Below, piece after piece: positions 27,227 to 63,770 of a stretch of DNA of 64,000 nt. The translations under genes and the position numbers were made by a program. The notes under the pieces were generated by a model that did no database searches, was not told the origin of the DNA, and worked only from the letters and a program-made list of their open reading frames with translations. The first letter of the stretch is position 1; each line of letters opens with the position of its first letter. Where the stretch lies: the IMG/VR virus record IMGVR_UViG_3300045972_000138, positions 127,513 to 191,512 of that record, one strand, 5' to 3'. The stretch is from a virus.

Positions 27227-28330
27227 ATGGCAGCAGCAATTGATACAACCCGCACAGAACGCCCGCGCGACATTCGTACACTCGTTATTCGTTGTATGAA
27301 GGTTGGTCGTCCTCCGATGATCTGGGGACCTCCTGGCATCGGCAAGAGTGAACTGATTGCAGAAATTGGTGTGGAAATGAATCGCCCTGTTATCGATATG
27401 CGTTTGCTGTTGCTGGAACCTACTGACATCAAGGGTATTCCGTATTTCGATCCCGAAACCAAAACAATGAAGTGGGCACAACCTGCAGACTTGCCTACTG
27501 AGTTGAGCCTGAACAACGCAATTTTGTTCTTGGACGAAATCAATGCTGCACCTCCTAGCGTGCAGGCAGCAGCATATCAACTTATCCTTAACCGTCGCGT
27601 TGGTGAATATCGTTTGCCCGCAGGTGTTAGCATGATTTGCGCTGGTAACCGTGAAAGCGATAAGGGTGTTACTTACCGTATGCCAAGTCCGCTTGCTAAT
27701 CGTTTGGTCCACTTTGAAATGGCTTGCAACTTCGAAGACTGGCAAAAATGGGCTATTGCAAACCACGAACATGCTGACGTTGTTGGTTTCCTGAGCCACC
27801 ACAAGCACAAGCTCTTCAACTTTGATAGCAAGTCTCCCGACAAGGCATTCGCTACACCACGTAGCTGGCACTTTGTTAGCGAACTTATCGTCGATGATGG
27901 CTCGCTTACTGAATCGCTCAACACTACATTGGTGGCAGGTTCGGTTGGTGATGGCCTTGCAACAGAGTTCAGCCAACACCGTAAGGTTGCTTCCAAGATG
28001 CCTAAATCCGAAGATGTGCTGTTGGGCAAGGAAACTCAACTCAATGTCAAAGACTTGAGCGCAATGTACTCGCTTACCATCTCTATGTGCTACACACTCC
28101 AAGAATGGGTTGCACGCTCCAAGACTAAGGAAGATGGTTTTGATGTTGCTAAGTGGCATGAATGTGTTGATCACTTCTTCAAGTTCATGATGGCTAACTT
28201 CCAAACTGAAATGATCGTGCTTGGTGCTAAGACTGCACTGCGTGATTACCAACTGCCAATCAATCACCGTCAACTCAAAGAGTTCAAGGGCTTCCATGAC
28301 AAGTACGGTAAGTACATTCTGGAAGATTAA
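27227..28330 (+). CDS. MoxR-family AAA+ ATPase
   Basis: Walker A GPPGIGKS; Walker B LFLDEINAA; 367 aa. Confidence 0.8.
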   Translation: MAAAIDTTRTERPRDIRTLVIRCMKVGRPPMIWGPPGIGKSELIAEIGVEMNRPVIDMRLLLLEPTDIKGIPYFDPETKTMKWAQPADLPTELSLNNAILFLDEINAAPPSVQAAAYQLILNRRVGEYRLPAGVSMICAGNRESDKGVTYRMPSPLANRLVHFEMACNFEDWQKWAIANHEHADVVGFLSHHKHKLFNFDSKSPDKAFATPRSWHFVSELIVDDGSLTESLNTTLVAGSVGDGLATEFSQHRKVASKMPKSEDVLLGKETQLNVKDLSAMYSLTISMCYTLQEWVARSKTKEDGFDVAKWHECVDHFFKFMMANFQTEMIVLGAKTALRDYQLPINHRQLKEFKGFHDKYGKYILED

Positions 28331-31156: not shown

Positions 31157-31414
31157 ATGGTATTCTTAGACTTGGTCGTAGCAGTATTAGTATTGTGCAT
31201 AATGATACTATTACTGACACAGGTAATAACACCTGTACTATTTGGAACACCGTTTTTCCCATTGTTCCGAAAATCCACAGAACTTAAAAAGGAAGTGGAT
31301 GCATTAGAGCTAACTCTCGAAGAAAAGGAAGAGTTAGTATTGTTGAAGATGAAACTTAGTAAATTAAAGGCTCGTGAAGCCGAACTTGAAAGTAAAGAAA
31401 ATGGCACAACTTAG
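31157..31414 (+). CDS. small membrane protein with coiled coil
   Basis: ATG 31157 two nt after upstream stop; TM MVFLDLVVAVLVLCIMILLL. Confidence 0.4.
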   Translation: MVFLDLVVAVLVLCIMILLLTQVITPVLFGTPFFPLFRKSTELKKEVDALELTLEEKEELVLLKMKLSKLKAREAELESKENGTT

Positions 31415-32636
31415 TATCTCCCCTAAACGCACTATTATCGCAGCAGCGTCTGCAATTGGTGCATTGTTTCTAATCATCTTTGTGGTGTTCTTGTTCAAGA
31501 ATGTCGATGCAAAGGATTATGTGGTTATCCAGGCACCAATCAGCGGTGAGCTGTCAGTTCATACAGACGGTGGATGGAAGTGGCAAGGTATGGGCAAGTC
31601 CCAAACTTATCACCGACGTGACCAGTTCAGCTTTAGCAATAAAGTTGATCAAGGTAAAGCAGGTGACGAATCCATTAGCACACGGTTTAACGATGGCGGC
31701 CACGGTAACATTTCTGGTACAGTGAATTGGCAAATGCCCGCAAGTCCAGACTTGATTATCAAGTTGCACAAAGACTTCGGTAGCATGGATGCAATTGAAC
31801 AACAATTGATTCGTCCTGCAATGCAAAAGGTTATCTACAATGTAGGCCCAACAATGTCCTCAACAGAATCTAGTGCTGAAAAGCGTCCTGAGATTCCAAA
31901 GTATATCGACGACCAACTTGTTAACGGTCCTTACTTGACTAAGACTGTTAATGTTACGCAAAAGGATGCAATCTCCGGGCAAGACAAAGTTGTTCCGGTA
32001 GTGCAAATTGCGTTGAATGACAAAGGTCAACCGATGCGTGAAAGCAAGTCGCAGATCACCGAATACGGCATTGTTTTGCAACCTGTAGCAATCAATGCAA
32101 TCGTGTACGACACTGTAGTTGAAGATCAGATTAAACAGCGTCAAACTGCAACTACGCAAGTACAGATTTCTATTGCTAATGCACGTAAGGCTGAACAGGA
32201 AGCAATTACTACAGAACAGCAAGGTAAGGCCAATGCCGCTAAAGCTAAGTGGGAACAGGAAACAGTGAATGCAAAGGATGTTGCATTGGCTGAAAAGGAA
32301 CTGCAAGTTGCTACATTGGCCGCAAAGACTGCTGAACAATCAAAACGTGAAAACATCTTGATTGGTGAAGGTGAAGCTGCTCGTAAGCGTCTGGTAATGG
32401 AAGCTAACGGTGCGTTGGATGCTAAGTTAGCTGCATATGTGGATGTAAACAAGGCCTATGCCGAAGCTATCTCCAAAGCACAACCTGGCGCATGGTCTCC
32501 ACAAGTTGTAATGGGTGGCGGAGCAAGCGGTGCTAACACATCTAACTCGCTTATCGAAATGCTGACTGCTAAGACAGCTCGCGAACTCGGAGTTGATATG
32601 TCAGTTATCAAGGGCAATACCGCTAAAACTAAGTAA
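31374..32636 (+). CDS. SPFH/band-7 (HflK/C, flotillin-like) membrane protein
   Basis: N-terminal TM, SPFH-like core, long Ala/Glu/Lys coiled coil; GTG start. Confidence 0.65.
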   Translation: MKPNLKVKKMAQLSISPKRTIIAAASAIGALFLIIFVVFLFKNVDAKDYVVIQAPISGELSVHTDGGWKWQGMGKSQTYHRRDQFSFSNKVDQGKAGDESISTRFNDGGHGNISGTVNWQMPASPDLIIKLHKDFGSMDAIEQQLIRPAMQKVIYNVGPTMSSTESSAEKRPEIPKYIDDQLVNGPYLTKTVNVTQKDAISGQDKVVPVVQIALNDKGQPMRESKSQITEYGIVLQPVAINAIVYDTVVEDQIKQRQTATTQVQISIANARKAEQEAITTEQQGKANAAKAKWEQETVNAKDVALAEKELQVATLAAKTAEQSKRENILIGEGEAARKRLVMEANGALDAKLAAYVDVNKAYAEAISKAQPGAWSPQVVMGGGASGANTSNSLIEMLTAKTARELGVDMSVIKGNTAKTK

Positions 32637-32716: not shown

Positions 32717-33814
32717 ATGGGTAAGATTATTGGTTCGGTAGCATTCCTTATTGCTATTATTGTTGGTGGTTACTTTGCTGATCCGGGGTTCCACGAAAAG
32801 GTTAACGGTATGCTGGGCAAAGGTGGTGCACAGGTTTCTGCCGTGCGTACTACGCAAACAGAACCAACTGCGTGGGAAGCAAAGAAAGGTTCTACACTGT
32901 CTAACATCATCGATAGCGGTGTGGTACATGCAAGCGTACAGGATCCTAGCAAGCCGTTCTACTACAAAGAAGGCGCACGTGCCAAAGGTTTCAATGTTGA
33001 CTTTATGAACATCTTGTTCGCTCAAAACGAATTCAGAACCAAGGTGGGAATTAAAGTTGAAGCAAGTGCAGTGGATTCGTATCCCGATGTACCGAAGCAA
33101 TTGCTTGATGGTAAGAAGGTTGATATTGCAATTGACGGCCTTACATTCAATGATGAAGACTTGAAGGGTGTGAAGTACACAATTCCTTATGTGAAGGACT
33201 TTGGTTACGCACTAATTACTCCTAAAGGTGTAAATGTAAACAATGTTGCTGACTTGGCTGGTGCAAAGGTTGGTATCATTAAAGGCGATCCGGATGTAAA
33301 ATCCTTTGTCGAAGGTGCTTTTCCTGGTGCTACTATTGTTGAAGTGTCTGACAAAGCAGACGAATCCGGCAAGTTTATTGCAGGCCACTTTAAAGCACAT
33401 CGTATCGACGCAATGGTTTATGACTATCCGTTTGCTGTAGCAGAAGTTGAAGGCACTAACCTGCAGTTTGCAATGACAAAGATCAAAGGTAGCGACATCC
33501 AGTATCGCATTGGTGTACGTGACGAAGATAAGGACTTGTTGGCAGCATTGAACGGTGCTATCCGTAAGGCAATGGATACGCCCGAATATACAGAAATGCT
33601 GAAACAATACTTTATGAGCAACAGTGTTGCGGCTGTACGCCGTGCAAGTTCCGGTGAAGTTAGCTATGTAGTGGTTAAGGGCGACACACTGAGCACTATT
33701 GCAGCATCGCAACTTGGTGACTTGAAGCGTTATCCGGATATCCAGGCACGTAATAACTTGGCCAACCCCAACTTTATTGCAGTTGGACAAAAGTTGATTA
33801 TTCCTAGCAAGTAA
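32717..33814 (+). CDS. solute-binding-protein-like domain fused to C-terminal LysM
   Basis: N-terminal TM; SBP_bac_3-like core; C-terminal YVVVKGDTLSTIAASQLGD...GQKLIIP LysM. Confidence 0.65.
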   Translation: MGKIIGSVAFLIAIIVGGYFADPGFHEKVNGMLGKGGAQVSAVRTTQTEPTAWEAKKGSTLSNIIDSGVVHASVQDPSKPFYYKEGARAKGFNVDFMNILFAQNEFRTKVGIKVEASAVDSYPDVPKQLLDGKKVDIAIDGLTFNDEDLKGVKYTIPYVKDFGYALITPKGVNVNNVADLAGAKVGIIKGDPDVKSFVEGAFPGATIVEVSDKADESGKFIAGHFKAHRIDAMVYDYPFAVAEVEGTNLQFAMTKIKGSDIQYRIGVRDEDKDLLAALNGAIRKAMDTPEYTEMLKQYFMSNSVAAVRRASSGEVSYVVVKGDTLSTIAASQLGDLKRYPDIQARNNLANPNFIAVGQKLIIPSK

Positions 33815-33817
33815 TTG

Positions 33818-33846
33818 TTGACTGCCCCTAAGGCCCGTGTTACAAT
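33818..33846 (+). promoter_or_regulatory. sigma70-like promoter TTGACT-N17-TACAAT
   Basis: upstream of rtcB ATG 33884 with AAGG RBS. Confidence 0.5.
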
Positions 33847-33883
33847 AATATGTAACGCGGGCTTTATTCTATTTAAGGTATAT

Positions 33884-35077
33884 ATGGAAATCAATAATGT
33901 AAAAATGTGGGTAGGTGATATGGAAGTTGAAGAAGCTGCTATTCAGCAGATTATGAATATTTCCCAATTGCCTATTCTTGCCGGACATATGGCTATTATG
34001 CCAGACGTTCATATGGGCAAGGGTGCAACAGTTGGTTCTGTTATTCCTACACGTTCCGCTATTATTCCTGCCGCAGTAGGTGTGGATATTGGTTGCGGTA
34101 TGATTGCTGCAATGACAAACCTTAAGGCAGAAGATCTTCCAACATCATTGTTCTCCTTGCGTAATGCAATTGAACGTGATGTACCTGTAGGCTTCAACGA
34201 GCACGACAAGGGTATCCCTTCTGTGTCGGGTCCTTATGCAGATATCCTGCGTAAGAATCTACGCAAGACAATGGATGACTTCGATACACTAACATTGAAG
34301 AAGAATTTGGGTCGTGCTGACGAAAAGAAGATTGCACGCCAGATTGGTACGCTAGGTGGCGGTAACCACTTTATCGAAATTTGTCTTGATACACAAAATC
34401 GTGTGTGGATTATGCTGCACTCTGGATCACGTGGCATCGGTAACCAAATTGGTACAGTTGCAATTGAACTGGCAAAGGAACAGGCTGCAAAGCGTGCATG
34501 GGGTCTCCCAGATCAGGATCTTGCTTGGTTGGATGAAGGCACACCGGAATTCGAAGCCTACATTGAAGCTATGCATTGGGCGCAGGATTATGCACGTTTC
34601 AATCGCGACACAATGATGAACTTGGTTGTGGCAGCAATGCTGCGTAAGTTTCCTACAATGAAGATTTTGGGCGAAGTGGTAAACTGCCATCACAACTTTA
34701 CAAGCCTGGAAGAACACTTTGGTACAAAGATGTGGATTACTCGTAAGGGTGCTGTATCTGCTAAACAAGGGCAAATGGGTATTATTCCTGGTTCGATGGG
34801 TGCTAAGTCGTTTATTGTGCAAGGCAAGGGTAATCACGATTCGTACTGCTCTTGCTCACACGGCGCAGGCCGCAAAATGAGCCGTAATCAGGCGAAAAAA
34901 CTGTTCGACGTTGCAGCTATGGAAGCGCAGACGCAAGGCATCGAGTGCCGCAAGGACTCGGGTGTTATTGACGAGATTCCTGCAGCATACAAAGACATCG
35001 ATCAAGTTATGGCAGCACAATCTGAATTGGTTGATGTAGTGCATACGCTGAAGCAGGTGCTCTGCGTTAAAGGTTAA
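33884..35077 (+). CDS. rtcB: RNA-splicing ligase RtcB
   Basis: VKMW...MPDVHMGKGATVGSVIPT...AAVGVDIGCGM, GGGNHFIEI, CSCSHGAGRKMSR; start at internal ATG 33884. Confidence 0.9.
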   Translation: MEINNVKMWVGDMEVEEAAIQQIMNISQLPILAGHMAIMPDVHMGKGATVGSVIPTRSAIIPAAVGVDIGCGMIAAMTNLKAEDLPTSLFSLRNAIERDVPVGFNEHDKGIPSVSGPYADILRKNLRKTMDDFDTLTLKKNLGRADEKKIARQIGTLGGGNHFIEICLDTQNRVWIMLHSGSRGIGNQIGTVAIELAKEQAAKRAWGLPDQDLAWLDEGTPEFEAYIEAMHWAQDYARFNRDTMMNLVVAAMLRKFPTMKILGEVVNCHHNFTSLEEHFGTKMWITRKGAVSAKQGQMGIIPGSMGAKSFIVQGKGNHDSYCSCSHGAGRKMSRNQAKKLFDVAAMEAQTQGIECRKDSGVIDEIPAAYKDIDQVMAAQSELVDVVHTLKQVLCVKG

Positions 35078-35532: not shown

Positions 35533-36732
35533 ATGGCCATTGATACATCGCCCGAAGCAGTGCTAGAACAACTAACTCGCGCACGAATTTCTTTGTTGTT
35601 GCAACAACCTTTCTGGGGCACACTTGCAACACGTCTTATTTTGAAAGACGCCACTGAAGAAGATTGGTGCCCAACAGCGGCAACAAACGGCAGATACTTT
35701 TACTACAATCGTAATTTTATCTCCAAACTCAACAAGCAAGAATGCATCTTCCTTGTAGCGCACGAAGTTGAACACTGTGTTTACGATCACATGGATCGTC
35801 GTGGTGGTCGTGCAGCAAAACGCTGGAATGCAGCAGCAGACTACGTTATCAATTATGAACTGCATGAATACAACATTGGTAAGATTCCAGATCCAAAGAC
35901 ATCTGGTGTACAGGCCTGCTTTGATCCAAAGTACAAAGGAATGTTTGCTGAAGAAGTATACGAACAACTTACAGACGATCAAAAGTTTCCAGAGTTCGAT
36001 GTTCACCTGGAGCCAGGTGATGGCAAGGGTGATCCGATGTCGGAAGACGAACAGCGCGAATTGAGCGATGAAATCCGTAATGCCGTTATGCAGGCAGCAA
36101 AGAGCGCAGGTGCTGGCAAGGTTCCTGCAGGTGTGCGTCGTATGCTCAAGGATCTTACCGAACCACAAATGGATTGGCGTGAAATCTTGAATATGAAGAT
36201 TCAATCTATGGTTAAGAGCGACTTTACCTGGGATCGTTGCTCGCGTAAGATGCAGAGCACTGGTATCTATTTGCCATCAACAAAGAATGACTTCAAGGCT
36301 CGTGCAGCAGTAGCAATCGATGCATCCGGATCTATGGGCGATAATATGTTGCGTGATTTGCTTGGCGAAACCAAAGGCATCATGGAACAGTTCAACGATT
36401 TTGAACTTGATGTGTGGACATTTGATACAAAGGTATACAACCCTGTACGTTTCACACCCGACAATATTGATGAAATCGATACATACGATATTAAGGGCGG
36501 CGGTGGTACTGACTTTGATGTCAACTTTGCTTACATGAAGGAAGCTGGGTTGGAACCAGAACGCTTTATTATGATGACAGACGGATACCCTTGCGGTAGC
36601 TGGGGCGACGAATTTTACTGCGATACATTGTTCCTTATCCACGGTGACCCACATCACAAGTTAGTTGCACCGTTTGGTATGACAGCATGGTACGAACCAG
36701 ATAGTCATTCACCGCAAAACAAGAAGAAATAA
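35533..36732 (+). CDS. VWA-domain protein with N-terminal HExxH metallopeptidase-like domain
   Basis: VAHEVEHCVYDH; MIDAS motif AIDASGSMGD; probable partner of MoxR ATPase. Confidence 0.7.
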   Translation: MAIDTSPEAVLEQLTRARISLLLQQPFWGTLATRLILKDATEEDWCPTAATNGRYFYYNRNFISKLNKQECIFLVAHEVEHCVYDHMDRRGGRAAKRWNAAADYVINYELHEYNIGKIPDPKTSGVQACFDPKYKGMFAEEVYEQLTDDQKFPEFDVHLEPGDGKGDPMSEDEQRELSDEIRNAVMQAAKSAGAGKVPAGVRRMLKDLTEPQMDWREILNMKIQSMVKSDFTWDRCSRKMQSTGIYLPSTKNDFKARAAVAIDASGSMGDNMLRDLLGETKGIMEQFNDFELDVWTFDTKVYNPVRFTPDNIDEIDTYDIKGGGGTDFDVNFAYMKEAGLEPERFIMMTDGYPCGSWGDEFYCDTLFLIHGDPHHKLVAPFGMTAWYEPDSHSPQNKKK

Positions 36733-42267: not shown

Positions 42268-42654
42268 ATGACAATCACTATATCTAACATAATTGCACTA
42301 CCTACAAGTCCTTTCCAGGGATCTGGATTAGTAGGTATTGTAATAACCTCGGGTGTTCCTAGTTACTTTAAACTAGAGGGCACTGAACTAAACAGAATAA
42401 CTGATGTAAATTGGTACCCAAATAACCCGGCTTCGGTTGCATTTATAACAAGGCAACTTATACTTGTTGATCAGACTATGGGCACGTTTATGATAAAGGT
42501 TACAGACAACTATTTGTCTGTAACGGATAGAGGCGGCAGGTTAAGTTTTAGAATAGACACAGGCGAAACAATAACGTTTCCAGTAAAGACATATGGTCCT
42601 GTATCCTATCAGCCATTATGGACAAGCCCGTACGAAGGTTTAAATACAGGTTAA
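42268..42654 (+). CDS. hypothetical protein (128 aa)
   Basis: ORF. Confidence 0.5.
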   Translation: MTITISNIIALPTSPFQGSGLVGIVITSGVPSYFKLEGTELNRITDVNWYPNNPASVAFITRQLILVDQTMGTFMIKVTDNYLSVTDRGGRLSFRIDTGETITFPVKTYGPVSYQPLWTSPYEGLNTG

Positions 42655-42656
42655 CA

Positions 42657-43433
42657 ATGAAATATATTATCGCCATATGTGCTATGTCTATATGCTTTAC
42701 CGCATCTGCTAGGTCGGGTCATAGCCATAAGGCGCCTGCACATCCTTCTGTGCCTTTTACTTCAACACCAGAGAGTTATCTTATTGCCGATAGCAATGGT
42801 GTCACAATCAAAGAACAAGATAGTGAGCTTCAACGCCCTATTGCATCTATATCAAAGTTGATGGTTGGCTTACTAGCGTCTGCACAGGATCTAAAAGAAG
42901 AATTATTGATTCCTTCTAAGCGTGCGGTAAGCAGCAGCATACCGAATAAGCAAAAAACATTGCCGCGAATAGAATTGCTGACATTAGCATTAGTTAAGTC
43001 CGATAACTTTGCAGCACAAATCCTTTGCGAAAATATCCCTAACTGCATAAGTGCAATGAATACACGAGCACAGGAGCTAGGAATGTTGCGCACGTACTAT
43101 GAAGAGCCAACTGGCCTAAGTAAAAACAATGTGAGTACAGCAAACGATCTACTAAAATTGTTGATGGTAGCAGCATCAAATACAACAATAACATCGGTAT
43201 CTAGTTTATCCACAGCAAGTGTAGATACTGGTAATAAATCAATCACTATAAAGAACACAAACCCGTTAACGGCTAAAATGGATATAGTATTATCTAAGAC
43301 AGGATTCACTAATCCTGCTGGCCAATGTTTGATTATGGGTGTTAGGTCGCCAGTCGGAGTGAAGTATTTTATACTTTTAGGAAGTAAACATCGTATTCCG
43401 GAGATGGAAAGACTATACAAAGATGTATCTTAG
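42657..43433 (+). CDS. D-alanyl-D-alanine carboxypeptidase/endopeptidase (PBP5/PbpG-like, S11)
   Basis: signal peptide; SxxK SISKLM, SxN KSDNFAA, KTG SKTGFT. Confidence 0.75.
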   Translation: MKYIIAICAMSICFTASARSGHSHKAPAHPSVPFTSTPESYLIADSNGVTIKEQDSELQRPIASISKLMVGLLASAQDLKEELLIPSKRAVSSSIPNKQKTLPRIELLTLALVKSDNFAAQILCENIPNCISAMNTRAQELGMLRTYYEEPTGLSKNNVSTANDLLKLLMVAASNTTITSVSSLSTASVDTGNKSITIKNTNPLTAKMDIVLSKTGFTNPAGQCLIMGVRSPVGVKYFILLGSKHRIPEMERLYKDVS

Positions 43434-47676: not shown

Positions 47677-47925
47677 CGTGATAAATAATAGTGCGTATAA
47701 TGCATTAAAAGGATAAATATGGACACAATTGAACACATACAACTTTTGATTGCAGAATTATGGACCAATTGGGATTTTGTGGCACCCGTGCTAGTCCCTA
47801 TTGCATATTTTCTTAACTAATAACCCTGGCGTTCGTTCAACGGATAGGACATCTTTCTTCTAAAGAGATAATAGTGGTTCGATTCCACTACGCCGGACCA
47901 ATTTTTAAACCACCAAGGACTTAAA

Positions 47926-48150
47926 ATGGAAATGACTAAAGTGTATGCCGCTCCCATTCTTGCAGAAGAAATGATTGCTTTGCGTGCAATCGACGCGTCT
48001 AACGCAGAACTTCGCGCACGGAATGAGGCACGCCTTTTTGAATTCAAGGAGTCGATGGGTATCAAGTATCTGTTGCATCCCGACAACGCACCAAAGCGTC
48101 AAGAATATGTTCACGTGCTGACGCACAAAAAAGAAACTATCAACGAGTAA
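47926..48150 (+). CDS. hypothetical protein (74 aa)
   Basis: RBS AAGGAC. Confidence 0.5.
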   Translation: MEMTKVYAAPILAEEMIALRAIDASNAELRARNEARLFEFKESMGIKYLLHPDNAPKRQEYVHVLTHKKETINE

Positions 48151-48153
48151 TAC

Positions 48154-48354
48154 GTGAACGACTTAGTTACGCTGAAAAACATTCTAGCCGTTTTAATTGA
48201 AAACGGCGTACACAACGAAGTAACACAGCTCGATAATGCTGTGCTCTTCGAGGGTGTTCCGCAGAATGTAATATACAAGGATGATTTGGTTGCAGCAGGT
48301 GCAACTTATGATTCAAACTTCGAAGCCTGGATGTTTTGGGGCAACGAAGAGTAA
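48154..48354 (+). CDS. hypothetical protein (66 aa)
   Basis: ORF. Confidence 0.45.
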   Translation: MNDLVTLKNILAVLIENGVHNEVTQLDNAVLFEGVPQNVIYKDDLVAAGATYDSNFEAWMFWGNEE

Positions 48355-48398
48355 AGCACGCAACTCTGATAAATAACATTATTGGAGTCGAATGCTTT

Positions 48399-48956
48399 AT
48401 GATATGTGAACATTGTTTAAAAGAATATACAAATAAATCCGGATATTCTAACCACATCAGGCGCTGCCCATCTAACCCGAATCGGGTAATGGAGACAATG
48501 TCCCCCGAAGGTCGACTTAAAATAAGTAAGTCATCAACCGATTACAATAAGATAAAGTGGGCAGATCCTGTTATACGAGCAAAACACAAGCAGTCAATGA
48601 AAGATGCCGTAAAGAATAATCCAGATTCTTACACATCATCTAATCGTGGAAGAACTAAACAAATAATTGTTGATGGTATTAAATTACAAGGGCAATGGGA
48701 AGTAGATTTTTATAATTGGGCAAAAGAAAAAGGATTGAGCCCAGAAAGACCAACTATAGCATTTAAGTATGAGTGGAATGGTGAAAGATTTTATCATCCA
48801 GATTTTTATATACCATCACTAGATTTATACGTAGAAGTGAAGGGTTATGAAACAGATAGGGATAGAGCAAAATGGTCGCAATTTCCGGGTAAGTTGCGTA
48901 TAATAAAAGCTGCAGAGATAAAACAGATTAGGCAAGGGTGCTTTGAGCGAGTTTAG
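48399..48956 (+). CDS. putative endonuclease: N-terminal zinc finger plus PD-(D/E)xK-like C-terminus
   Basis: CEHC...CP Zn finger; DFYIP...LYVEVKG resembles PD-(D/E)xK core; overlaps tRNA-Met start by 10 nt. Confidence 0.45.
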   Translation: MICEHCLKEYTNKSGYSNHIRRCPSNPNRVMETMSPEGRLKISKSSTDYNKIKWADPVIRAKHKQSMKDAVKNNPDSYTSSNRGRTKQIIVDGIKLQGQWEVDFYNWAKEKGLSPERPTIAFKYEWNGERFYHPDFYIPSLDLYVEVKGYETDRDRAKWSQFPGKLRIIKAAEIKQIRQGCFERV

Positions 48957-49021
48957 CATAAAGGTAGTGCCGAGAACTCATAATTCTTAAGGTCCGGGTT
49001 CGATCCCCGGGGCTCGCACCA
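48947..49021 (+). tRNA. tRNA-Met (anticodon CAT; elongator or Ile-lysidine type), CCA encoded
   Basis: Hand-folded cloverleaf: acceptor GCGAGTT/GGCTCGC, U8, D-loop GG, anticodon loop CTCATAA, T-arm CCGGG-TTCGATC-CCCGG, G1-C72. Confidence 0.75.
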
Positions 49022-49053
49022 AAGCATCTTTCCCTAATCTTAGAAAGACACAC

Positions 49054-49260
49054 ATGGCAGAAATCAAACTAACAAGCGTATGGGCAGTTGACATTATTGA
49101 ATCTGAGCGCGGTTGGGGTTCTAAGGTCGACGAAACAAAACTTTTCGAAACACAGGAAGAAGCTGTGAAGTTTTCGAAAGATTACAACGCAAAGTACAAT
49201 ACCGCTACAGAAGTACCGGATTGGTATATGTCTGCTCAGACTCCGTACAAGGTTAAATAA
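49054..49260 (+). CDS. hypothetical protein (68 aa)
   Basis: ORF. Confidence 0.5.
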   Translation: MAEIKLTSVWAVDIIESERGWGSKVDETKLFETQEEAVKFSKDYNAKYNTATEVPDWYMSAQTPYKVK

Positions 49261-49363
49261 TCAACTAAGGGCCGTGCTCTAACATTCCAACGATTCGCCT
49301 ACTTCGGTATATTCCAATGGTACGCGGCTGTAAATATATGTTGGTTGATAAAGGTGGCTACCG

Positions 49364-49427
49364 CGGTAGAATACGAAGGTAGTTACAGGCAGTAGCATAT
49401 CTTGATGACTGAGAATGTATTCTACCG
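49364..49427 (+). other. long hairpin (11-bp perfect stem, 42-nt loop) in 266-nt non-coding spacer
   Basis: CGGTAGAATAC ... GTATTCTACCG; adjacent palindrome CTACCGCGGTAG. Confidence 0.5.
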
Positions 49428-49526
49428 AAAGGTCCCTATACAAAAGCTTTCATTCACCTCTATGCGTGACTGCCACCTATTCAAATAGTAGTTGCTCTAC
49501 TTCCTATTTAATGTATAATAGGAAGC

Positions 49527-50030
49527 ATGAAGCAAATACTTATACTCCTAGCAATGGTGCCTACAACGCTGTATAACACAGTATGCCCTAAAATGCCAAA
49601 GATGGATGCCGCACAAGAAAAGTGCTTGGCTACTACCATTTACGGAGAAGCACGTAGCGAACCCGAACAAGGGCAGGTTGCAGTGGCTTATACACTACTA
49701 AATCGCGCTAAAAATAAGACCATATGCGATGTTGCACTAGCACGCAAGCAATATAGTGTATTCAACAATAATCCTACATTACGAGCAATAGCGACATCCT
49801 TGCACCTGTTACCAGAACAGAAAAATACAATTGACCAAAAGAGTTGGGAAATGGCTGTTCGTGTTTCAAGGATAGTTATGTATGGATTAACACCAGACCC
49901 AACTAACGGTGCTACTCATTACATTGCTGACAAGGTCATGAAAGTAAAAGGATACAAATATCCTAAGTGGTCAAAAGAATATAAGGTTGTGGCAACCATC
50001 AGCAACCATAAATTTTATAAAATCGGTTGA
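49527..50030 (+). CDS. cell wall hydrolase, SleB family (candidate endolysin)
   Basis: TIYGEARSEPEQGQVAVAYTLLNRA and THY motif; RBS AGGAAG sits in hairpin 49500-49525. Confidence 0.65.
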   Translation: MKQILILLAMVPTTLYNTVCPKMPKMDAAQEKCLATTIYGEARSEPEQGQVAVAYTLLNRAKNKTICDVALARKQYSVFNNNPTLRAIATSLHLLPEQKNTIDQKSWEMAVRVSRIVMYGLTPDPTNGATHYIADKVMKVKGYKYPKWSKEYKVVATISNHKFYKIG

Positions 50031-50055
50031 CTGGTACAGGTCGAACTCATACAAT
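50027..50055 (+). promoter_or_regulatory. sigma70-like promoter TTGACT-N17-TACAAT
   Basis: upstream of 50075 with TAAGGATTATATG leader. Confidence 0.5.
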
Positions 50056-50074
50056 AAATAGATCTAAGGATTAT

Positions 50075-50956
50075 ATGTCTATTAAGTACACCTTGTCGGT
50101 AATTATGTTGGCCTCACTGGTTGCTTGTGGAGGTGGGGGCGGAGGTAGCCCAGGCAGCGATGTTGCATCACCTACCAGATTACCAGTTAACGGTATTGTC
50201 TTATCTGCAGATCTGGCACCGGCCAATCTTAGTTGCACCGATTATGTAGAATACGATACAGGTAATGGCAGACTAACCAATAATGTCTGGAATAAACAAG
50301 CAGCAGGAACATTTCCGTACGCACAATGCATCACAGCTAAAGGACCACTATCAGCAAAGGTGTATGGATGGTCGTGGAATTGGCCTGCGAACTCTGGCAG
50401 TGTATTTGCCTATCCAGAAATAGTGTACGGATGGAAACCGTGGAACGGCGGATCGAGTAATGTACCTACATTGCCTATACGTGTTTCGGCAATTACCACT
50501 TTACGTTTCTCCTATGATCTTACTGTGACAACAAACGGTAAACACAATGTTTCTACATCTATGTGGTTAACAAGCAACGGTGCGACGAGTAATAAACCGG
50601 ACTCGTCGCATATCACAACCGAGTTTATGATATGGACAGATGGATATGATTTTCATCCTGCTGGTAATTTGGCAGCAATATATACAACCCAAACGGGAAC
50701 ACAATACGAGGTATGGTTTGATCCATATCAAACCGATGCATCGGGGCAGAATGCAAATGTATGGAAATATGTTGCGTACCGTGCAGTAGTTCCTAGTCTT
50801 ACGCCAACTATCGATTTGAAATTAATACTGCAAGATGCAGTAACAAGAGGATATGTTTCGGCTACCGATTATGTATCTAATGTTGAACTTGGAAACGAAA
50901 TTATGTCCAGTTCAGGTCAAACGTGGATTAACTCTATTTCGTTAGTAGCACAATGA
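50075..50956 (+). CDS. secreted lipoprotein, possible GH12-like glycoside hydrolase
   Basis: lipobox LVAC then Gly run; EFMIWTD resembles GH12 nucleophile motif E-x-MIW; second GNE. Confidence 0.5.
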   Translation: MSIKYTLSVIMLASLVACGGGGGGSPGSDVASPTRLPVNGIVLSADLAPANLSCTDYVEYDTGNGRLTNNVWNKQAAGTFPYAQCITAKGPLSAKVYGWSWNWPANSGSVFAYPEIVYGWKPWNGGSSNVPTLPIRVSAITTLRFSYDLTVTTNGKHNVSTSMWLTSNGATSNKPDSSHITTEFMIWTDGYDFHPAGNLAAIYTTQTGTQYEVWFDPYQTDASGQNANVWKYVAYRAVVPSLTPTIDLKLILQDAVTRGYVSATDYVSNVELGNEIMSSSGQTWINSISLVAQ

Positions 50957-51079
50957 AACTTACAACATATCAAAAACACCTATTCTCCAGATTCAAACTT
51001 CGCGGTGACTATGTCACTTGGTGTTTTAATTCTAAAGGGTGGTTGCGTATTCATCGATTCATTATCCGCTGGCGTCTAG

Positions 51080-51110
51080 TTGACATCAACGCCGTAAGCT
51101 GTGCTATAAT
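51080..51110 (+). promoter_or_regulatory. promoter with extended -10 (TGCTATAAT), -35 TTGACA at 19-bp spacing
   Basis: likely drives the tRNA array. Confidence 0.45.
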
Positions 51111-51276
51111 ACACTCAGCAGTGTGAGTGCAGTCCTATATAGTAGGCATACAAATAAGTCCTACTATATTTTATGCAGATAATGCTTGCTAGAGTCATAA
51201 ATAAGTGCTACAATAAGCACTTAGCAAAACAAATAGTTGATCGCAACTGTTTGTGGTAAGTTCTTTAACAAAATAT

Positions 51277-51363
51277 GCGAGTGTGGCGAAATAGGTAGAC
51301 GCAACAGACTTAAAATCTGTCGGGGGCAACTTCATGCCGGTTCGATTCCGGCCACTCGCACCA
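51277..51363 (+). tRNA. tRNA-Leu (anticodon TAA), type II long variable arm, CCA encoded
   Basis: acceptor GCGAGTG/CACTCGC perfect; anticodon stem ACAGA/TCTGT loop CTTAAAA; T-arm GCCGG-TTCGATT-CCGGC; 15-nt variable arm. Confidence 0.85.
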
Positions 51364-51518
51364 TAGTTTATGTCCCTGTCGGTGGAGAGCGACACCTCCG
51401 CGCTTAACGGCAATGCAGAAATGCAAAGGATACGAAAGTATCAAGGGACTCCAATTTTAAGGGATACTTACAGCAATTTTAATTCACCGTAAATGAAACC
51501 AAAAAGGTATCCTGTTTA

Positions 51519-51593
51519 GCCCTTGTAGCAGAGTGGTAATGCACGCGCCTTGTAAGCGCGGGATCTGGTGTTCGATTCACCACGAGGGCACCA
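51519..51593 (+). tRNA. tRNA-Thr (anticodon TGT), CCA encoded
   Basis: acceptor GCCCTTG/CGAGGGC; anticodon stem CGCGC/GCGCG loop CTTGTAA; T-arm TGGTG-TTCGATT-CACCA. Confidence 0.8.
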
Positions 51594-51684
51594 TATTAGA
51601 ATGCACTAACTGAGTACAAGGCTCAGCGTGCGAATTCAGTAACTAAGCCTCAAGAGGAAGCTATAGTGCATTCTAATATGGTGT
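51589..51684 (+). repeat. long hairpin H1 of the CCATAT...ATATGG family (16-bp stem, 59-nt loop); 5' arm starts on the CCA of tRNA-Thr
   Basis: CATATTAGAATGCAC / GTGCATTCTAATATG perfect. Confidence 0.8.
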
Positions 51685-51790
51685 GTTGATCGTTAAATCA
51701 AAAAGTAAAGCGAAGTACAAGCTAGCCAATAGACCCGCGAACGTACTTAGAATCGTTCATGACAGTGAAAGCCTGTAAGGGGAGATTAAC

Positions 51791-51859
51791 ATACCATATT
51801 AGAACACACTACGACTCTAACGAGGGCTGGTTCACCGGTAGTGTGTTCTAATATGGTAT
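51791..51859 (+). repeat. long hairpin H2 (20-bp stem, 29-nt loop)
   Basis: ATACCATATTAGAACACACT / AGTGTGTTCTAATATGGTAT. Confidence 0.8.
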
Positions 51860-51928
51860 ACCGATAGCCCAAAGATAAGAGGCAAGTATAATTACTGACA
51901 GTGCAGGTTAGATTCCTGTTCGGATACT

Positions 51929-52073
51929 ACCATATTAAACTACATTCGTTGATCGGTGAGCCCAGGGCAGATCCGCAAATGTCGAAGTGTTGTTACACAC
52001 AGTTTCGGTCCTTGCCATATAGTGCTTGGTATCGGGTAAGACGGTTTAATTCCGCAGTGTAGTTTAATATGGT
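51929..52073 (+). repeat. long hairpin H3 (15-17-bp stem, ~110-nt loop)
   Basis: CCATATTAAACTACA / TGTAGTTTAATATGG. Confidence 0.75.
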
Positions 52074-52190
52074 GATGTAATGTCCTCGCAAGGGACTGTG
52101 GCAGAGCAACGCGGATCGTTATACGGCAATGCTCAAGAGAATGCAACCACATGGGGCAAGAGTAAGTGAACGTGAGTAACCGATTACCTC

Positions 52191-52317
52191 TACCATATCA
52201 ATCCGCAAAGCTCTTGCGACGGGGCTTTACAGGACGGGAATTGACCCGAAACGTGTCGCAGCGTTGGCATCTGGTAAGGATGCATAGCCTGAATTAACAG
52301 GGCGGATTGATATGGTG
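52191..52317 (+). repeat. long hairpin H5 (15-bp stem, 95-nt loop)
   Basis: ACCATATCAATCCGC / GCGGATTGATATGGT. Confidence 0.75.
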
Positions 52318-52858
52318 TGCTAAGTTAAGTGCCTTAAACTGAAAGAGAATGAAAAGTAGAATTGCAGCTAATGTAGCCTGGCCAGGTACGGCATTAGACG
52401 TTCTAGTTAGTAGATTTCTGGAGGGGTAGTTTAGTGTAATAGGAGCACGCAACCTTTATGGCGCCGAAGAACGGTGCGATACCGTGGCTATTAAAGGTGC
52501 TTAACTTAGATTTCCGAAGCTTGTAATCAAGCCTGACACGACAGCATAACGTGGGTTGGACCTTAGCCAAGTAAAAATATTAAGGTGCAGTATTGCCATG
52601 CATAGAAGTGTGATAGTTTACGGGGCGGAGTTCTTAAAACTACCCTGGTATGGTCCTAATCATTAGGCCAAAGAAAGTGTTGTTAACGACACCAAAGTCA
52701 TCCTAGACTGGAAAAACTAGGGTGCATATATTTTAAAGATTTGCCTCAGTACCTCAGTGGATTTGTGATTGTACTACTTTAAAGGAACGTTTAGTAGGGA
52801 TTGCACTTTAAAGACGAATGCTTCTTCTTGCACAGATGCGCGATCTGGAATGGTTTTA

Positions 52859-52932
52859 GTTGAAGTCAATACTGTAGAGGGCCGGATTTCTAATCCGAAA
52901 GTCGGGGGTTCGATTCCTTCCTGCGGCACCAT
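52859..52932 (+). tRNA. degenerate tRNA-like element (T-arm + CCA, TCT anticodon-like loop); possible tRNA-Arg pseudogene
   Basis: GGGGG-TTCGATT-CCTTC T-arm, CTGCGGC-A-CCA 3' end, CCGGA-TTTCTAA-TCCG loop; no canonical 5' acceptor strand or D-arm found. Confidence 0.25.
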
Positions 52933-53002
52933 ATAGAAACACATTTCCGACAGTAGGCGGAGGTGACAATGTCCATTCGGGTGAATGTGTTTCTATATGG
53001 TA
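52929..53002 (+). repeat. long hairpin H4 (18-bp stem, 38-nt loop); 5' arm starts on CCA of the tRNA-like element
   Basis: ACCATATAGAAACACATT / AATGTGTTTCTATATGGT. Confidence 0.8.
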
Positions 53003-53292
53003 TGAAGCGTACTGTAACACTTAGTGGGAAAGCGCCTTCTGTTGTATATGATTTAGCAACTCACCTCTGGTAAATCACGACAGGAGAAAGTTACAGCCAT
53101 TTTTATTATGGTAAATGCGGAGACTGATCCGCGAGTTAGGTTGCGTCACCGGGTGGCTTATTTTGCCAAGATCACATCAGATTGAGGCTACACTCCTACC
53201 GCGGAAATTGGGTGATGTCCGAGGGTCTGAAGCGTAAGATGAGTAGTAGGAAAATCTAAATAATGCAGGAGATCAGTACCTGTTACCATTTT

Positions 53293-53431
53293 TATAGAAA
53301 GCTTCCTGAGTAGCTACACTGGAACAACTGAAATACTAATGCCAGCCCCGAAAAAAGTGGGAAAGTTTCTTAGGACCAGCCAGGAAGAGTAGGGCTACCA
53401 CGAATTCGAGCGTCACAGGAAGCTTTCTATA
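53293..53431 (+). repeat. long hairpin H6 (16-bp stem, 107-nt loop), shares TATAGAAA with H4
   Basis: TATAGAAAGCTTCCTG / CAGGAAGCTTTCTATA. Confidence 0.7.
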
Positions 53432-53443
53432 GATAAATACTGT

Positions 53444-53659
53444 ATGGCCACAATCAAGCGAAAATCTAAAATGACAGATGATGATTTCAGACGCGATTTC
53501 GAAGACAGTGTCATTATGGAAGAACTTGATTTTGATACCATACCAATGGAACTATTAGCAGAATTTGAAGCAATGTCTATACAGTCAAAAGGTATAGACC
53601 AGGATGTACAAGAACATATAGAAACTGAATTTGATCAATTACGTGACACCTATCTATAA
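53444..53659 (+). CDS. hypothetical acidic protein (71 aa)
   Basis: ORF. Confidence 0.5.
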   Translation: MATIKRKSKMTDDDFRRDFEDSVIMEELDFDTIPMELLAEFEAMSIQSKGIDQDVQEHIETEFDQLRDTYL

Positions 53660-53874
53660 TGCTATTAAACATATTAAAACTCCTAGTGGTGGGCAAGCCA
53701 AAGGCCGCAACTAAAACGCCAAAGTACGAATCCTGGTACAATTCCGATATACGACTGTGGACTGCACAATTTAAAAATGATTCTGGTGATCAGATTGGTA
53801 GTGCAGGATTTGGTGCCAACAAATCTTCAGCAATTGAAGATCTATTCTACCAAAACATAGACATACTAGAATAA
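53659..53874 (+). CDS. hypothetical protein (71 aa)
   Basis: ATAATG overlap. Confidence 0.5.
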   Translation: MLLNILKLLVVGKPKAATKTPKYESWYNSDIRLWTAQFKNDSGDQIGSAGFGANKSSAIEDLFYQNIDILE

Positions 53875-53909
53875 TTGTGTTATACTAACCACAACTAAGA
53901 AAGATTGCT

Positions 53910-54416
53910 ATGGACATTGTATACAAAGCGCGGGTATTTGCTACTGCTGCACACTACGCGGTTAAACAGGTGCGGAAGTACACTGGTGAACCTTACATCG
54001 TGCATCCAGCAGAAGTAGTTAACATTCTGTACAAATATGGTGCAACAGACGAAATGGCTGCTGCAGGATGGTTACACGACACAGTGGAAGACACTGGTGT
54101 CACAATCGATGTCATTTACTACGAATTTGGGCAAACCATCGGCGAATATGTGAATTGGTTGACTGACCAAACCAAGCCCGAAGATGGTAACCGTGCCGTA
54201 CGAAAGAAGATGGATGCTGATCGTTTAGCACTGGCACCAGCCGAAGTGCAGACTGTAAAGTATGCTGACCTGATCTCCAATACCAGGTCCATTACTGAAT
54301 ATGATGCAGGTTTCGCTAAAACATATTTGGTTGAAAAGGCTTACCTGTTAAGCGTAATGACAAAGGGTAATCCGCACCTTTACGAACTTGCGATGAAGAA
54401 TATTGTATCAGTCTAA
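53910..54416 (+). CDS. (p)ppGpp hydrolase, SpoT/Mesh1-like HD domain
   Basis: YIVHPAEVVNIL...AAAGWLHDTVEDTGVTIDVIYYEFG matches RelA/SpoT HD block HxxxV...LHDvvEDT. Confidence 0.7.
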   Translation: MDIVYKARVFATAAHYAVKQVRKYTGEPYIVHPAEVVNILYKYGATDEMAAAGWLHDTVEDTGVTIDVIYYEFGQTIGEYVNWLTDQTKPEDGNRAVRKKMDADRLALAPAEVQTVKYADLISNTRSITEYDAGFAKTYLVEKAYLLSVMTKGNPHLYELAMKNIVSV

Positions 54417-54562
54417 GGTACTCTATGAAATACGCTAAAATTGCGGTTGGAATCCTATTTGTGTTAGTGCTAGTCAAAGGTCTTCTGTTTATCTCTAGTG
54501 AAGAGAACAGTATTAGACTGAATACTGACTGGGGCATCGCAAAAGATCATCCAATAAAATAA

Positions 54563-54590
54563 TTGACTTTGTTTAAATTACTGCTATAAT
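54563..54590 (+). promoter_or_regulatory. sigma70 promoter TTGACT-N16-TATAAT with TGc extended -10; leaderless to ATG 54597
   Basis: -10 ends 6 nt before ATG. Confidence 0.5.
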
Positions 54591-54596
54591 ACATAT

Positions 54597-56015: not shown

Positions 56016-56164
56016 ACGAAGAAATGGTAACCATCACTAAAGCAGAATACGATCAACTCTGTAAGGACTCTGAGTGGCTTGGCTATCTCGAAGCGGCTGG
56101 TGTTGACAACTGGCAAGGTATCGACGAAGCAATACAGATGCGACGAGAGGACAACGAAGAATGA
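56012..56164 (+). CDS. mini-protein (50 aa)
   Basis: ATGA overlap with ligase stop. Confidence 0.3.
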   Translation: MNEEMVTITKAEYDQLCKDSEWLGYLEAAGVDNWQGIDEAIQMRREDNEE

Positions 56165-56292
56165 AAGACTGCCCTGATTGCTGGCAAGAAGTAATCGATG
56201 CAGACACAACTGAGTGCGAAAGCTGTGGCTTTAAATTTGTTGAGTTGATTGCTAATGAACACGATTGGGAAGAAATAAGTGAAACAGTATAA
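56161..56292 (+). CDS. zinc-ribbon mini-protein (43 aa)
   Basis: CPDC...CESCG. Confidence 0.3.
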   Translation: MKDCPDCWQEVIDADTTECESCGFKFVELIANEHDWEEISETV

Positions 56293-56491
56293 AATTTTAG
56301 ATACTATCTATTTGGGATTCTTAACTCATAATGATTCTTACGAATTGTTTATTGATCCGGGGTTTGGGCATTTGAAATTTGACGGTAGCGATATTGTGTA
56401 TATTGATGCACACGGCGGCGAACACGTTTCGCACACTACAAACAACGCGATCGATATTTGGTTAGAACAAGGAAAGATTGAGGTGATGTAA
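56279..56491 (+). CDS. hypothetical protein (70 aa)
   Basis: GTG start. Confidence 0.45.
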   Translation: MKQYKILDTIYLGFLTHNDSYELFIDPGFGHLKFDGSDIVYIDAHGGEHVSHTTNNAIDIWLEQGKIEVM

Positions 56492-56762
56492 TGAAAGAAG
56501 AATTGTTAAAACTTCTTTACAGTCAACGCAGTCAAGTAATAGCAGACAGCGAACCCGACGAATTCGATTGTCTAGTTGGCCTTGTCGAAGATGGTACAAT
56601 TAGTACCTTTGAAGAACTTGCAGAATATGGCGTTGAGAAATAACTTTCGAAATGGGGATGCGTTAGGTCAAGATTATAAACCTGGAAGAACCCTATATAT
56701 GTTTAACTAGGGTCCTAATGTTCGGTTCGAGACCGAAGCGAAAGTATCTATAAGGAGATGAA

Positions 56763-63074: not shown

Positions 63075-63770
63075 ATGAACTATGCCAATATCTATAACCA
63101 ACTAATTCAATCTGCCCAAGATAGGCAAACATTAGACGGTTACAAAGAAAAACATCATATTATTCCGCGGTGTGTGCAAGGTACGAACGATAAGAGTAAT
63201 TTGGTTTATTTGACAGCAAGAGAGCATCTTATTGCACATAGACTTTTAGATAAAATTTATCCAGATAATTATAAAATATTCTTTGCACTGTGGTCTATGC
63301 TTACAATGAAGACAAACAATATGCAACGCATATCAAATTCAAGAGAATACGAAAAAGCAAAGATTAGATTGCGGTCTGTCATGTCCTTAATACAGACTGG
63401 ATCTAAACGACCGCCACGGACTCCAGAGCATACGGCCAAGATTGTTGCCGCACAAAAAGGCCGAGTTGTATCAGAAGAAACAAGATCTAAGATTAGAGAA
63501 GCACGAAAATCTCAGACTTGGTCAGATGAGCAGCGCCTGGCTCAGTCAATTCGATTATCTGGTAGTGGAAATCACTTCTTTGGTAAAACGCATTCAGATC
63601 AAACCAAATCAAAGATAAGTGCAAATAATGCAGCATCTAAGAAAGTTTCGTGTGACGGGGTTATATACGAGTCGATGGTAGAAGCTGCTGCAGGTTGTGG
63701 ATTTAAACATTACGAAACTATAAAGAAACGGTGCAGGTCAGACAAATATCCAAATTGGTTCTTTATTTAA
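63075..63770 (+). CDS. HNH homing endonuclease with NUMOD-like repeats
   Basis: EKHHIIPRCVQGTNDKSNLVYLTAREHLIAH; repeated x-E-x-R-x-K-I-S/R segments. Confidence 0.65.
   Translation: MNYANIYNQLIQSAQDRQTLDGYKEKHHIIPRCVQGTNDKSNLVYLTAREHLIAHRLLDKIYPDNYKIFFALWSMLTMKTNNMQRISNSREYEKAKIRLRSVMSLIQTGSKRPPRTPEHTAKIVAAQKGRVVSEETRSKIREARKSQTWSDEQRLAQSIRLSGSGNHFFGKTHSDQTKSKISANNAASKKVSCDGVIYESMVEAAAGCGFKHYETIKKRCRSDKYPNWFFI

Follow-up and report, generated by a model that had tools for sequence, protein, structure and literature searches.

Small alarmone hydrolases (SAHs), stand-alone hydrolases of the RelA/SpoT homologue (RSH) type, are encoded by many phages and prophages (Jimmy et al. 2020, PMC7229694). 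Two of them, PaSpo of Salmonella phage SSU5 and PbcSpo of phage PVP-SE1, neutralise all five tested classes of toxSAS toxins, and it has been proposed that incoming phages bypass alarmone-mediated abortive infection via such hydrolases (PMC7229694). The toxSAS enzymes FaRel2, PhRel, PhRel2 and CapRel pyrophosphorylate the CCA end of tRNA, a modification that two SAHs, MESH1 and ATfaRel, undo, restoring aminoacylation in vitro, and it has been remarked that SAHs may act as RNA 3′-phosphatases 'similar to T4 Pnk' (Kurata et al. 2021). Reversal of the FaRel2 modification of tRNA is likewise reported for SSU5 PaSpo, a hydrolase in routine use where CapRel is to be expressed. In jumbo phages, 'HD-alarmone' phosphodiesterases have been catalogued with a proposed counter-alarmone role, and some of the RNA-repair systems of such phages include HD-like phosphatases (Iyer et al. 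2021, PMC7824862). A Pseudomonas phage genome paper of 2025 annotates a further SAH and states that its substrate preference is not predictable (PMC12846349). Here, we analyse an SAH gene at positions 53910..54416 of a 64,000-nucleotide stretch of viral DNA, positions 127,513 to 191,512 of IMG/VR record IMGVR_UViG_3300045972_000138, which is referred to below as the window.

The gene encodes a single-domain protein with the following layout.

53910..54416, + strand: SAH open reading frame (ORF), 168 amino acids (aa), from ATG to TAA
53910..54416, + strand: within this ORF, HD_4 domain at residues 7–129, then a C-terminal helical cap (from profile and fold)

An earlier note on this DNA had described a 168-aa ORF at these coordinates, carrying the signature HPAEV...LHDTVEDT, and all of this is borne out, with YIVHPAEVVNILYKYGATDEMAAAGWLHDTVEDT occupying residues 29–62. 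The note had assigned the product to stand-alone HD hydrolases of the SpoT/Mesh1 type, and four independent lines, namely profiles, homologues of solved structure, predicted fold and conserved catalytic residues, agree in supporting that assignment. Specifically, Pfam HD_4 (PF13328) matches residues 7–129 with 47 bits (E=3e-12; gathering cut-off 27.2), while the generic Pfam HD model reaches 16.3 bits, under its cut-off of 22, and no further Pfam domain is found. The NCBIfam model spoT_relA matches at E=6e-20 through its N-terminal hydrolase part only (positions 4–123 of 687), and PHROG 990, 'metal-dependent phosphohydrolase', matches at E=9e-35. In a phmmer search against the PDB, all matches at E<=1e-3 are RSH hydrolases, SAHs or a (p)ppApp hydrolase, among them RelSeq (1vj7, E=1e-15), Mycobacterium tuberculosis Rel, Lmo0812, MESH1 (E=4e-11), SpoT, PaSAH and RelH. 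The (p)ppApp-specific HD hydrolase Aph1 (7smg, Ahmad et al. 2023) gives a partial match over residues 6–79 (E=1.1e-3, 22 bits); membership of the Aph1 type was considered and rejected, the matches to RelSeq and MESH1 being far better than that to 7smg.

The Pfam scan found no synthetase, TGS or ACT domain in the 168-aa protein, which is therefore a small alarmone hydrolase and would have none of the regulation that long RSH enzymes receive from ribosomes or from a synthetase domain. In a BLASTP comparison, SSU5 PaSpo scores 121 bits against the protein; in the PDB search, MESH1, PaSAH and RelH score only 22–50 bits. The nearest characterised protein is in this comparison the PaSpo-type enzyme of Salmonella phage SSU5, and membership of the PaSpo subfamily (classification of Jimmy et al. 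2020) is putative, by nearest neighbour among SSU5 PaSpo, MESH1, PaSAH and RelH.

The active site of the RSH hydrolase domain is complete in the window protein. The residues concerned were located by a HMMER alignment to RelSeq (1vj7) and by an alignment of 45 homologues.

53973..53975, + strand: codon of Arg22, equivalent to RelSeq Arg44, the substrate-contacting Arg of motif HD1 (1vj7 alignment, 45 homologues)
54003..54005, + strand: codon of His32, equivalent to RelSeq His53, Mn2+ ligand (alignment, 45 homologues)
54075..54092, + strand: H56-D57-T-V-E60-D61, HD metal ligands and ED dyad, equivalent to RelSeq H77, D78, E81 and D82 (alignment)
54267..54281, + strand: D120-L-I-S-N124, fourth metal ligand Asp and conserved Asn, equivalent to RelSeq D144 and N148 (alignment)

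Residues R22, H32, H56, D57, E60, D61, D120 and N124 thus align with R44, H53, H77, D78, E81, D82, D144 and N148 of RelSeq, and all eight are invariant across the 45 homologues, which are 60–79% identical to the window protein. The RelSeq equivalents are reportedly the Mn2+ ligands, the ED dyad and the substrate-contacting Arg and Asn (Hogg et al. 2004, cited in PMC7824862). The Mn2+-binding tetrad H...HD...D is complete (H32, H56, D57 and D120), and so are the RSH-specific features, namely the E60-D61 dyad three residues past the HD motif, R22 of HD1 and N124 of HD6. The loss of catalytic His or Asp residues, which the earlier note had named as a refutation of its call, did not appear on alignment; all of them are kept.

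An AlphaFold2 model computed on the 45-homologue alignment is all-helical, with a mean predicted local distance difference test score (pLDDT) of 94.8 and a predicted template-modelling (TM) score of 0.90. In a Foldseek search of this model against the PDB, all of the 50 matches listed are RSH hydrolase domains, SAHs or the (p)ppApp hydrolase Aph1. The predicted structure superimposes over its full length on the top match, MESH1 (3nr1), with a TM-score of 0.88 and a root-mean-square deviation (rmsd) of 1.9 Å. Bacterial SAHs, including L. levettii SAH (7qoe), PaSAH (6yvc) and 7qod, give TM-scores of 0.80–0.85.

Comparison with described enzymes places the window protein within a known class. SSU5 PaSpo (SSU5_099, AFL47026.1) is also a phage stand-alone RSH hydrolase; it shares 44% identity with the window protein over 154 aa (E=9e-40), has the same catalytic motifs and likewise has no neighbouring synthetase gene. 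It differs in its length of 213 aa with a longer C-terminal tail, in its 103-kb Salmonella phage genome and in its neighbours, a methylase and hypothetical proteins, which are unrelated to those in the window. Furthermore, activity against toxSAS has been demonstrated for PaSpo, by co-expression, and is predicted for the window protein. The ATfaRel antitoxin of C. marina, a PbcSpo SAH and type IV antitoxin of the FaRel toxSAS, is also a single-domain SAH and detoxifies by degrading the product of the toxin, hydrolysing (pp)pApp and stripping pyrophosphate from tRNA; it shares an operon with its toxin, whereas the window gene has no synthetase neighbour. Human and Drosophila MESH1, PaSAH, Corynebacterium glutamicum RelH and L. 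levettii SAH have the same all-helical fold (TM 0.80–0.88, rmsd 1.9–3.1 Å) and the same metal-binding and catalytic residues as the window protein, but are only 22–28% identical to it and serve cells in housekeeping or self-protection, MESH1 being also an NADPH phosphatase. The hydrolase domain of RelSeq and SpoT is the best sequence match (1vj7), every hydrolase motif aligning residue for residue.

The jumbo-phage HD-alarmone proteins (PMC7824862) belong to the same domain family, with the same proposed counter-alarmone role. The copies listed from phiKZ-like, Erwinia, Dickeya and Klebsiella jumbo phages are 29–38% identical to the window protein and that of Pseudomonas phage Viktualia is closer, at 49.6%; the phage of the window is of a different lineage, within the T4 superfamily, and its DNA polymerase shares 42% identity with those of Phosso and Atu_ph07. 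A tblastn search found SAH homologues in 246 INPHARED phage records, including phiKZ-like, Erwinia, Dickeya and Serratia jumbo phages, with identities of 54% for Komagataeibacter phage phiKM1, 43.5% for SSU5 and 34.5% for phiKZ-type copies. The earlier note had held that such genes are not commonly annotated in phages. Most deposited copies do carry no more than the label 'metal-dependent phosphohydrolase' or 'hypothetical protein', but the class is neither rare nor new, given the 246 INPHARED records, the two phage SAHs tested in 2020 and the jumbo-phage catalogue of 2021. The family call of the note was right and its novelty overstated; phage SAHs were already known, and the window protein adds one more representative.

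Related proteins are numerous in metagenomes. A metagenome protein set holds 3580 homologues at E<=1e-5, of 166–184 aa, many of them 60–80% identical to the window protein, and an identical protein is among them. The longest contig in the cluster of this identical protein is 237,609 bp (JGI), and a 29-kb Logan contig also encodes the identical protein.

Relatives in other phages and in bacteria sit among unrelated genes. In phiKM1, the best cultured-phage homologue (locus L003, LC644974.1 46408-47587), the SAH gene comes immediately after a HicA/HicB toxin-antitoxin pair and lies near the integrase of this temperate phage, a context unlike that of the window but again conflict-related. Bacterial chromosomal homologues of 44–57% identity (loci L095–L174) are widespread in Proteobacteria, occurring in Serratia, Pantoea, Erwinia, Dickeya, Novosphingobium, Sphingomonas and Halomonas, and mainly in Serratia, Pantoea, Erwinia, Novosphingobium and Halomonas; they are orphans of about 200 aa with no adjacent synthetase, and several enterobacterial loci adjoin an OsmC-like gene and a gene for a large membrane protein. 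When the neighbours in 80 bacterial SAH loci were clustered, no partner of the toxSAS or RNA-repair kind emerged; the clusters were only of chromosomal genes specific to a lineage or artefacts of antisense ORFs.

Candidate promoters around the SAH gene bear on when it would be expressed.

53858..53886, + strand: sigma-70-like promoter candidate TAGACA-17-TATACT with an extended −10 TG, 10/12 match, 24 nt upstream of the SAH ATG
54563..54590, + strand: near-consensus promoter of the DNA ligase gene

The window has eight perfect TTGAC-N17-19-TATAAT sites where chance predicts 0.25, and every one is on the + strand, in the 28–60 kb part (28372, 35478, 37307, 47235, 47673, 54563, 57368 and 59535). 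The T4 late-promoter motif TATAAATA shows no enrichment in the window, with four sites found and 5.9 expected. This distribution suggests that the 28–60 kb part is an early region read by the host sigma-70 RNA polymerase. Because of the candidate promoter 24 nt upstream and the sigma-70-type sites surrounding it, the SAH gene probably belongs to the host-polymerase-dependent early class.

The reading that we favour, to which we assign a probability of roughly 0.75, is that the protein is an active Mn2+-dependent 3′-pyrophosphohydrolase, made early, that acts on (p)ppGpp and (p)ppApp and probably on pyrophosphorylated tRNA, preventing stringent-type shutdown or toxSAS-driven abortive infection. 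By homology, His32, His56, Asp57 and Asp120 would hold Mn2+ and the Glu60-Asp61 dyad would activate a water molecule, which would attack the phosphoester at the ribose 3′-oxygen and release pyrophosphate. Thereby (p)ppGpp would be converted to GDP or GTP, (p)ppApp to ADP or ATP, and the 3′-pyrophosphorylated CCA end of tRNA to a chargeable 3′-OH. Probably transcribed early by the host RNA polymerase, the gene would supply an enzyme that strips the products of RelA/SpoT, of (pp)pApp makers of the FaRel/Tas1 type and of tRNA pyrophosphorylases of the CapRel/PhRel/FaRel2 type, so that the infected cell would stay translationally and metabolically permissive and would not enter growth arrest or abortive infection. 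It is predicted that viruses answer abortive-infection systems of the alarmone-based and tRNA-pyrophosphorylating kinds (toxSAS such as CapRel) by encoding alarmone hydrolases. The window SAH, well conserved and apparently active, represents an abundant group of jumbo phages known only from uncultured material.

Several points weigh against this reading. The closest biochemically tested relative, SSU5 PaSpo, is only 44% identical. The choice among (p)ppGpp, (p)ppApp and pyrophosphorylated tRNA is not decidable from sequence alone, as has also been said of another phage SAH (PMC12846349), and we found no reliable published rule for residues that tell guanine, adenine and tRNA substrates apart. 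The host of the phage may or may not carry toxSAS systems. The SAH promoter candidate is a consensus match only. Finally, in the literature searched, we found no infection-level demonstration of a phage SAH, the published evidence being heterologous co-expression.

The earlier note had named the protein a (p)ppGpp hydrolase, which is correct as to the RSH hydrolase family and narrower than the evidence as to substrate. The physiological substrate may be a different one, since SSU5 PaSpo neutralises both toxins that make (pp)pApp and toxins that pyrophosphorylate tRNA. A strict (p)ppGpp hydrolase would have the sole job, SpoT-like, of switching off the host stringent response, keeping ribosome synthesis, replication and nucleotide pools high. 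The best sequence matches, which are the hydrolase domains of bifunctional (p)ppGpp enzymes (RelSeq, M. tuberculosis Rel and SpoT), and the conservation of the residues that contact ppGpp in RelSeq are what would be expected of such an enzyme. We nevertheless consider so narrow a specificity rather unlikely, though a serious alternative, as the stand-alone SAHs that have been tested, whose architecture is nearer to that of the window protein, are promiscuous: MESH1, PaSAH, ATfaRel and SSU5 PaSpo act on (p)ppApp, on pyrophosphorylated tRNA or on both, MESH1 acts on NADPH as well, and no feature of the window sequence favours guanine over adenine.

A different role is raised by the genes that surround SAH homologues in related phages. 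We collected 80 IMG/VR loci with SAH homologues of 51–67% identity, clustered de novo the + strand ORFs within 6 kb, and counted lineages at 80% SAH identity, which gave 24 lineages among the 80 loci. On long viral contigs with homologues of about 64% identity, the SAH gene lies among genes for a DSP/PTP-type phosphatase, a calcineurin-like phosphoesterase, an AAA_33 kinase and a T4 Rnl1-type ligase. Specifically, a calcineurin-like phosphoesterase is found near the SAH gene in 57 of the 80 loci, at a median of 81 nt upstream, a DSP/PTP-type phosphatase (Pfam Tc-R-P) in 53, a Pnk-like AAA_33 kinase in 47 and a T4 Rnl1-like RNA ligase in 28; 64 loci, from 10 of the 24 lineages, have one or more of these four RNA-repair-type enzymes. 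Two small conserved ORFs, of 67 aa (50/80) and 75 aa (37/80), recur as well. For 35 loci, tRNA genes are found within 6 kb of the SAH gene, and a single locus may have as many as 29. Typically, the genes follow one another as tRNA array, PTP, kinase, phosphoesterase, SAH, Rnl1 and 67-aa ORF, sometimes with a T4-type DNA ligase after them. This island is seen among the IMG/VR and metagenome loci L005, L007 and L011–L090, for example at L087:4337-7405 and L076:3924-8620. Cultured phages show isolated parallels, with RtcB 2.6 kb upstream of the SAH gene of Rhizobium phage RHph_N1_10 and, some 0.8 kb upstream of that of Viktualia, a Thg1-like tRNA-His guanylyltransferase.

These neighbours raise the possibility that the protein is primarily an RNA 3′-end repair enzyme, a phosphoesterase of a tRNA-maintenance toolkit that clears a 3′-pyrophosphate, or a 3′-phosphate, from damaged tRNA for charging or ligation, and not chiefly a degrader of free alarmones. 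The island and the tRNA-enzyme neighbours fit the published remark likening SAHs to T4 Pnk and the HD-like phosphatases of jumbo-phage RNA-repair systems (PMC7824862), SAHs have been shown to de-pyrophosphorylate tRNA, and the window itself has four tRNAs and RtcB. However, phmmer searches at E<=1e-2 found no Pnk-like kinase, calcineurin-like or PTP-like phosphoesterase or Rnl1 in the 64-kb window, nor any of the other neighbours seen in relatives (DUF2828, RF-1-like, radical SAM, NAD synthase and Thy1). The closest relatives, at 67–80% identity (L009, L175, L176 and the P0018 contig), are also without the island, their SAH gene being followed by a DNA ligase, as in the window. Moreover, 52 of the 80 loci belong to one lineage and the linkage extends to 10 of 24 lineages, so that inherited synteny may explain much of it. 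A neighbour-joining tree of 81 viral SAHs, which is not robust, places the window protein among unlinked copies, while percent identity instead ranks linked copies closest. Other phage copies and the bacterial copies have unrelated neighbours. On balance, we regard a dedicated RNA-repair role for the window protein as doubtful.

A wider form of this proposal, which we advance only tentatively and do not expect to hold, is that in a large set of uncultured jumbo phages the SAH, instead of serving mainly to degrade second messengers, is a dedicated component of a tRNA-maintenance island and repairs tRNA 3′ ends pyrophosphorylated by toxSAS of the CapRel/PhRel/FaRel2 type, the window copy having kept this function while losing or relocating the island. 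If so, a third 'healing' chemistry would be added to the classical T4 Pnkp/Rnl1 pathway. If the island linkage is functional, this would point to damaged tRNA, and not to free ppGpp, as the natural substrate, and the island would offer a tractable cassette for testing. The window SAH by itself leaves the picture unchanged, and the useful lead is the tRNA/RNA-repair island in related phages.

We judge it very improbable that, in place of the broad alarmone and tRNA hydrolase that we favour, the protein is a MESH1-like phosphatase of another 2′/3′-phosphorylated nucleotide, such as NADPH or a compound like 3′-phosphoadenosine-5′-phosphosulfate (PAPS), that remodels host cofactor pools. The top structural matches do include human MESH1 with NADPH and with PAPS (5vxa and 9chy; TM 0.86–0.87), but what matches is the core common to RSH hydrolases, and bacterial SAHs match it just as well; SSU5 PaSpo, closest in sequence, is used as an alarmone and tRNA hydrolase, and no NAD(P)-metabolism context lies beside the SAH gene. 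Hardly credible, finally, is a generic HD-superfamily dNTPase or nucleotidase, which the earlier note had named as the outcome that would speak against its call, or a catalytically dead HD fold serving as a binding protein: the HD superfamily is functionally broad and the generic Pfam HD model does give its weak match, but only RSH-type models and structures score well while other HD families do not score, the ED dyad and the Arg and Asn motifs, RSH-specific features that generic HD dNTPases do not have, are invariant, and every catalytic residue is strongly conserved.

The window belongs to the genome of an uncultured T4-superfamily jumbo phage, as follows from its polymerase relatives, from the 237,609-bp contig, the longest in the cluster of the identical protein, and from the lack of near-identical DNA in 50,697 deposited phage genomes (INPHARED, queried with positions 51000-57000). 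Its family-B DNA polymerase has its nearest counterparts, with no more than 42% identity, in the jumbo phages Phosso and Atu_ph07 and in Rak2-like phages. The window also encodes a tail protein, an exonuclease, an endolysin-like protein, RtcB, HNH and homing endonucleases and four tRNAs. The + strand carries nearly every long ORF, with − strand ORFs for the most part overlapping these, and the GC content is about 0.40. The immediate neighbours of the SAH gene are the following.

53444..53874: two 71-aa ORFs upstream of the SAH gene
54425..54562, + strand: 45-aa ORF with a hydrophobic N-terminal stretch, 9 nt past the SAH stop, also called in a second copy of the phage (L001)
54597..56015, + strand: T4-type ATP-dependent DNA ligase, 181 nt downstream of the SAH gene (phrog_114, E=1e-94)

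The 45-aa ORF is probably co-transcribed with the SAH gene. The DNA ligase is a syntenic neighbour, separate from the SAH itself, and the same order of SAH and then DNA ligase is found in L009, L175, L176 and the P0018 contig. We rejected the idea that the pair of 71-aa ORFs represents, in frameshifted form, the 146-aa gene located just before the SAH gene in L009, L175 and L176, as tblastn found no similarity. No toxin or synthetase partner stands next to the SAH gene, the flanking 71-, 71- and 45-aa ORFs matching no family, and neither they nor the ligase giving a toxin or synthetase match in PHROG or PADLOC. PADLOC, run on the SAH gene and nine neighbours, called only a homing endonuclease (63075..63770) and no defence or toxin partner. 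Because there is no adjacent synthetase gene, the SAH gene is an orphan rather than the antitoxin half of a toxSAS module resident in the phage.

The RNA-related genes of the window lie farther away. The RtcB ligase (33815..35077; Pfam RtcB, E=7e-128) is 19 kb from the SAH gene and is followed by an HNH endonuclease (35533..36732); a Band_7/SPFH protein lies two genes upstream of RtcB (31374..32636), and a MoxR-like AAA ATPase farther upstream (27227..28330). The four tRNAs (Arg-TCT, Met-CAT, Leu-TAA and Thr-TGT; 47826..51593) are 2.3–6 kb upstream of the SAH gene and alternate with protein genes. An endonuclease-like ORF (48336..48956, phrog_15137) ends within the start of tRNA-Met, and mobile endonucleases, such as the homing endonuclease named above, appear to be common in this part of the window. 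Between tRNA-Thr and the small ORFs before the SAH gene, about 1.85 kb (51594..53443) contains no ORF longer than 70 aa. This stretch holds a hairpin at 51791..51858 with a 22-bp perfect stem (dG −40.9 kcal/mol, z=−6.3), and a degenerate tRNA-like element at 52859..52928 that scores 26.5 bits with the Rfam tRNA model (cut-off 29) and is not called by ARAGORN. Two further genes represent unusual cell-wall-related cargo, namely those for a D-alanyl-D-alanine carboxypeptidase-like protein (42618..43433; Peptidase_S11, E=7e-28) and for a protein with a solute-binding-protein family 3 domain and a LysM domain (32717..33814).

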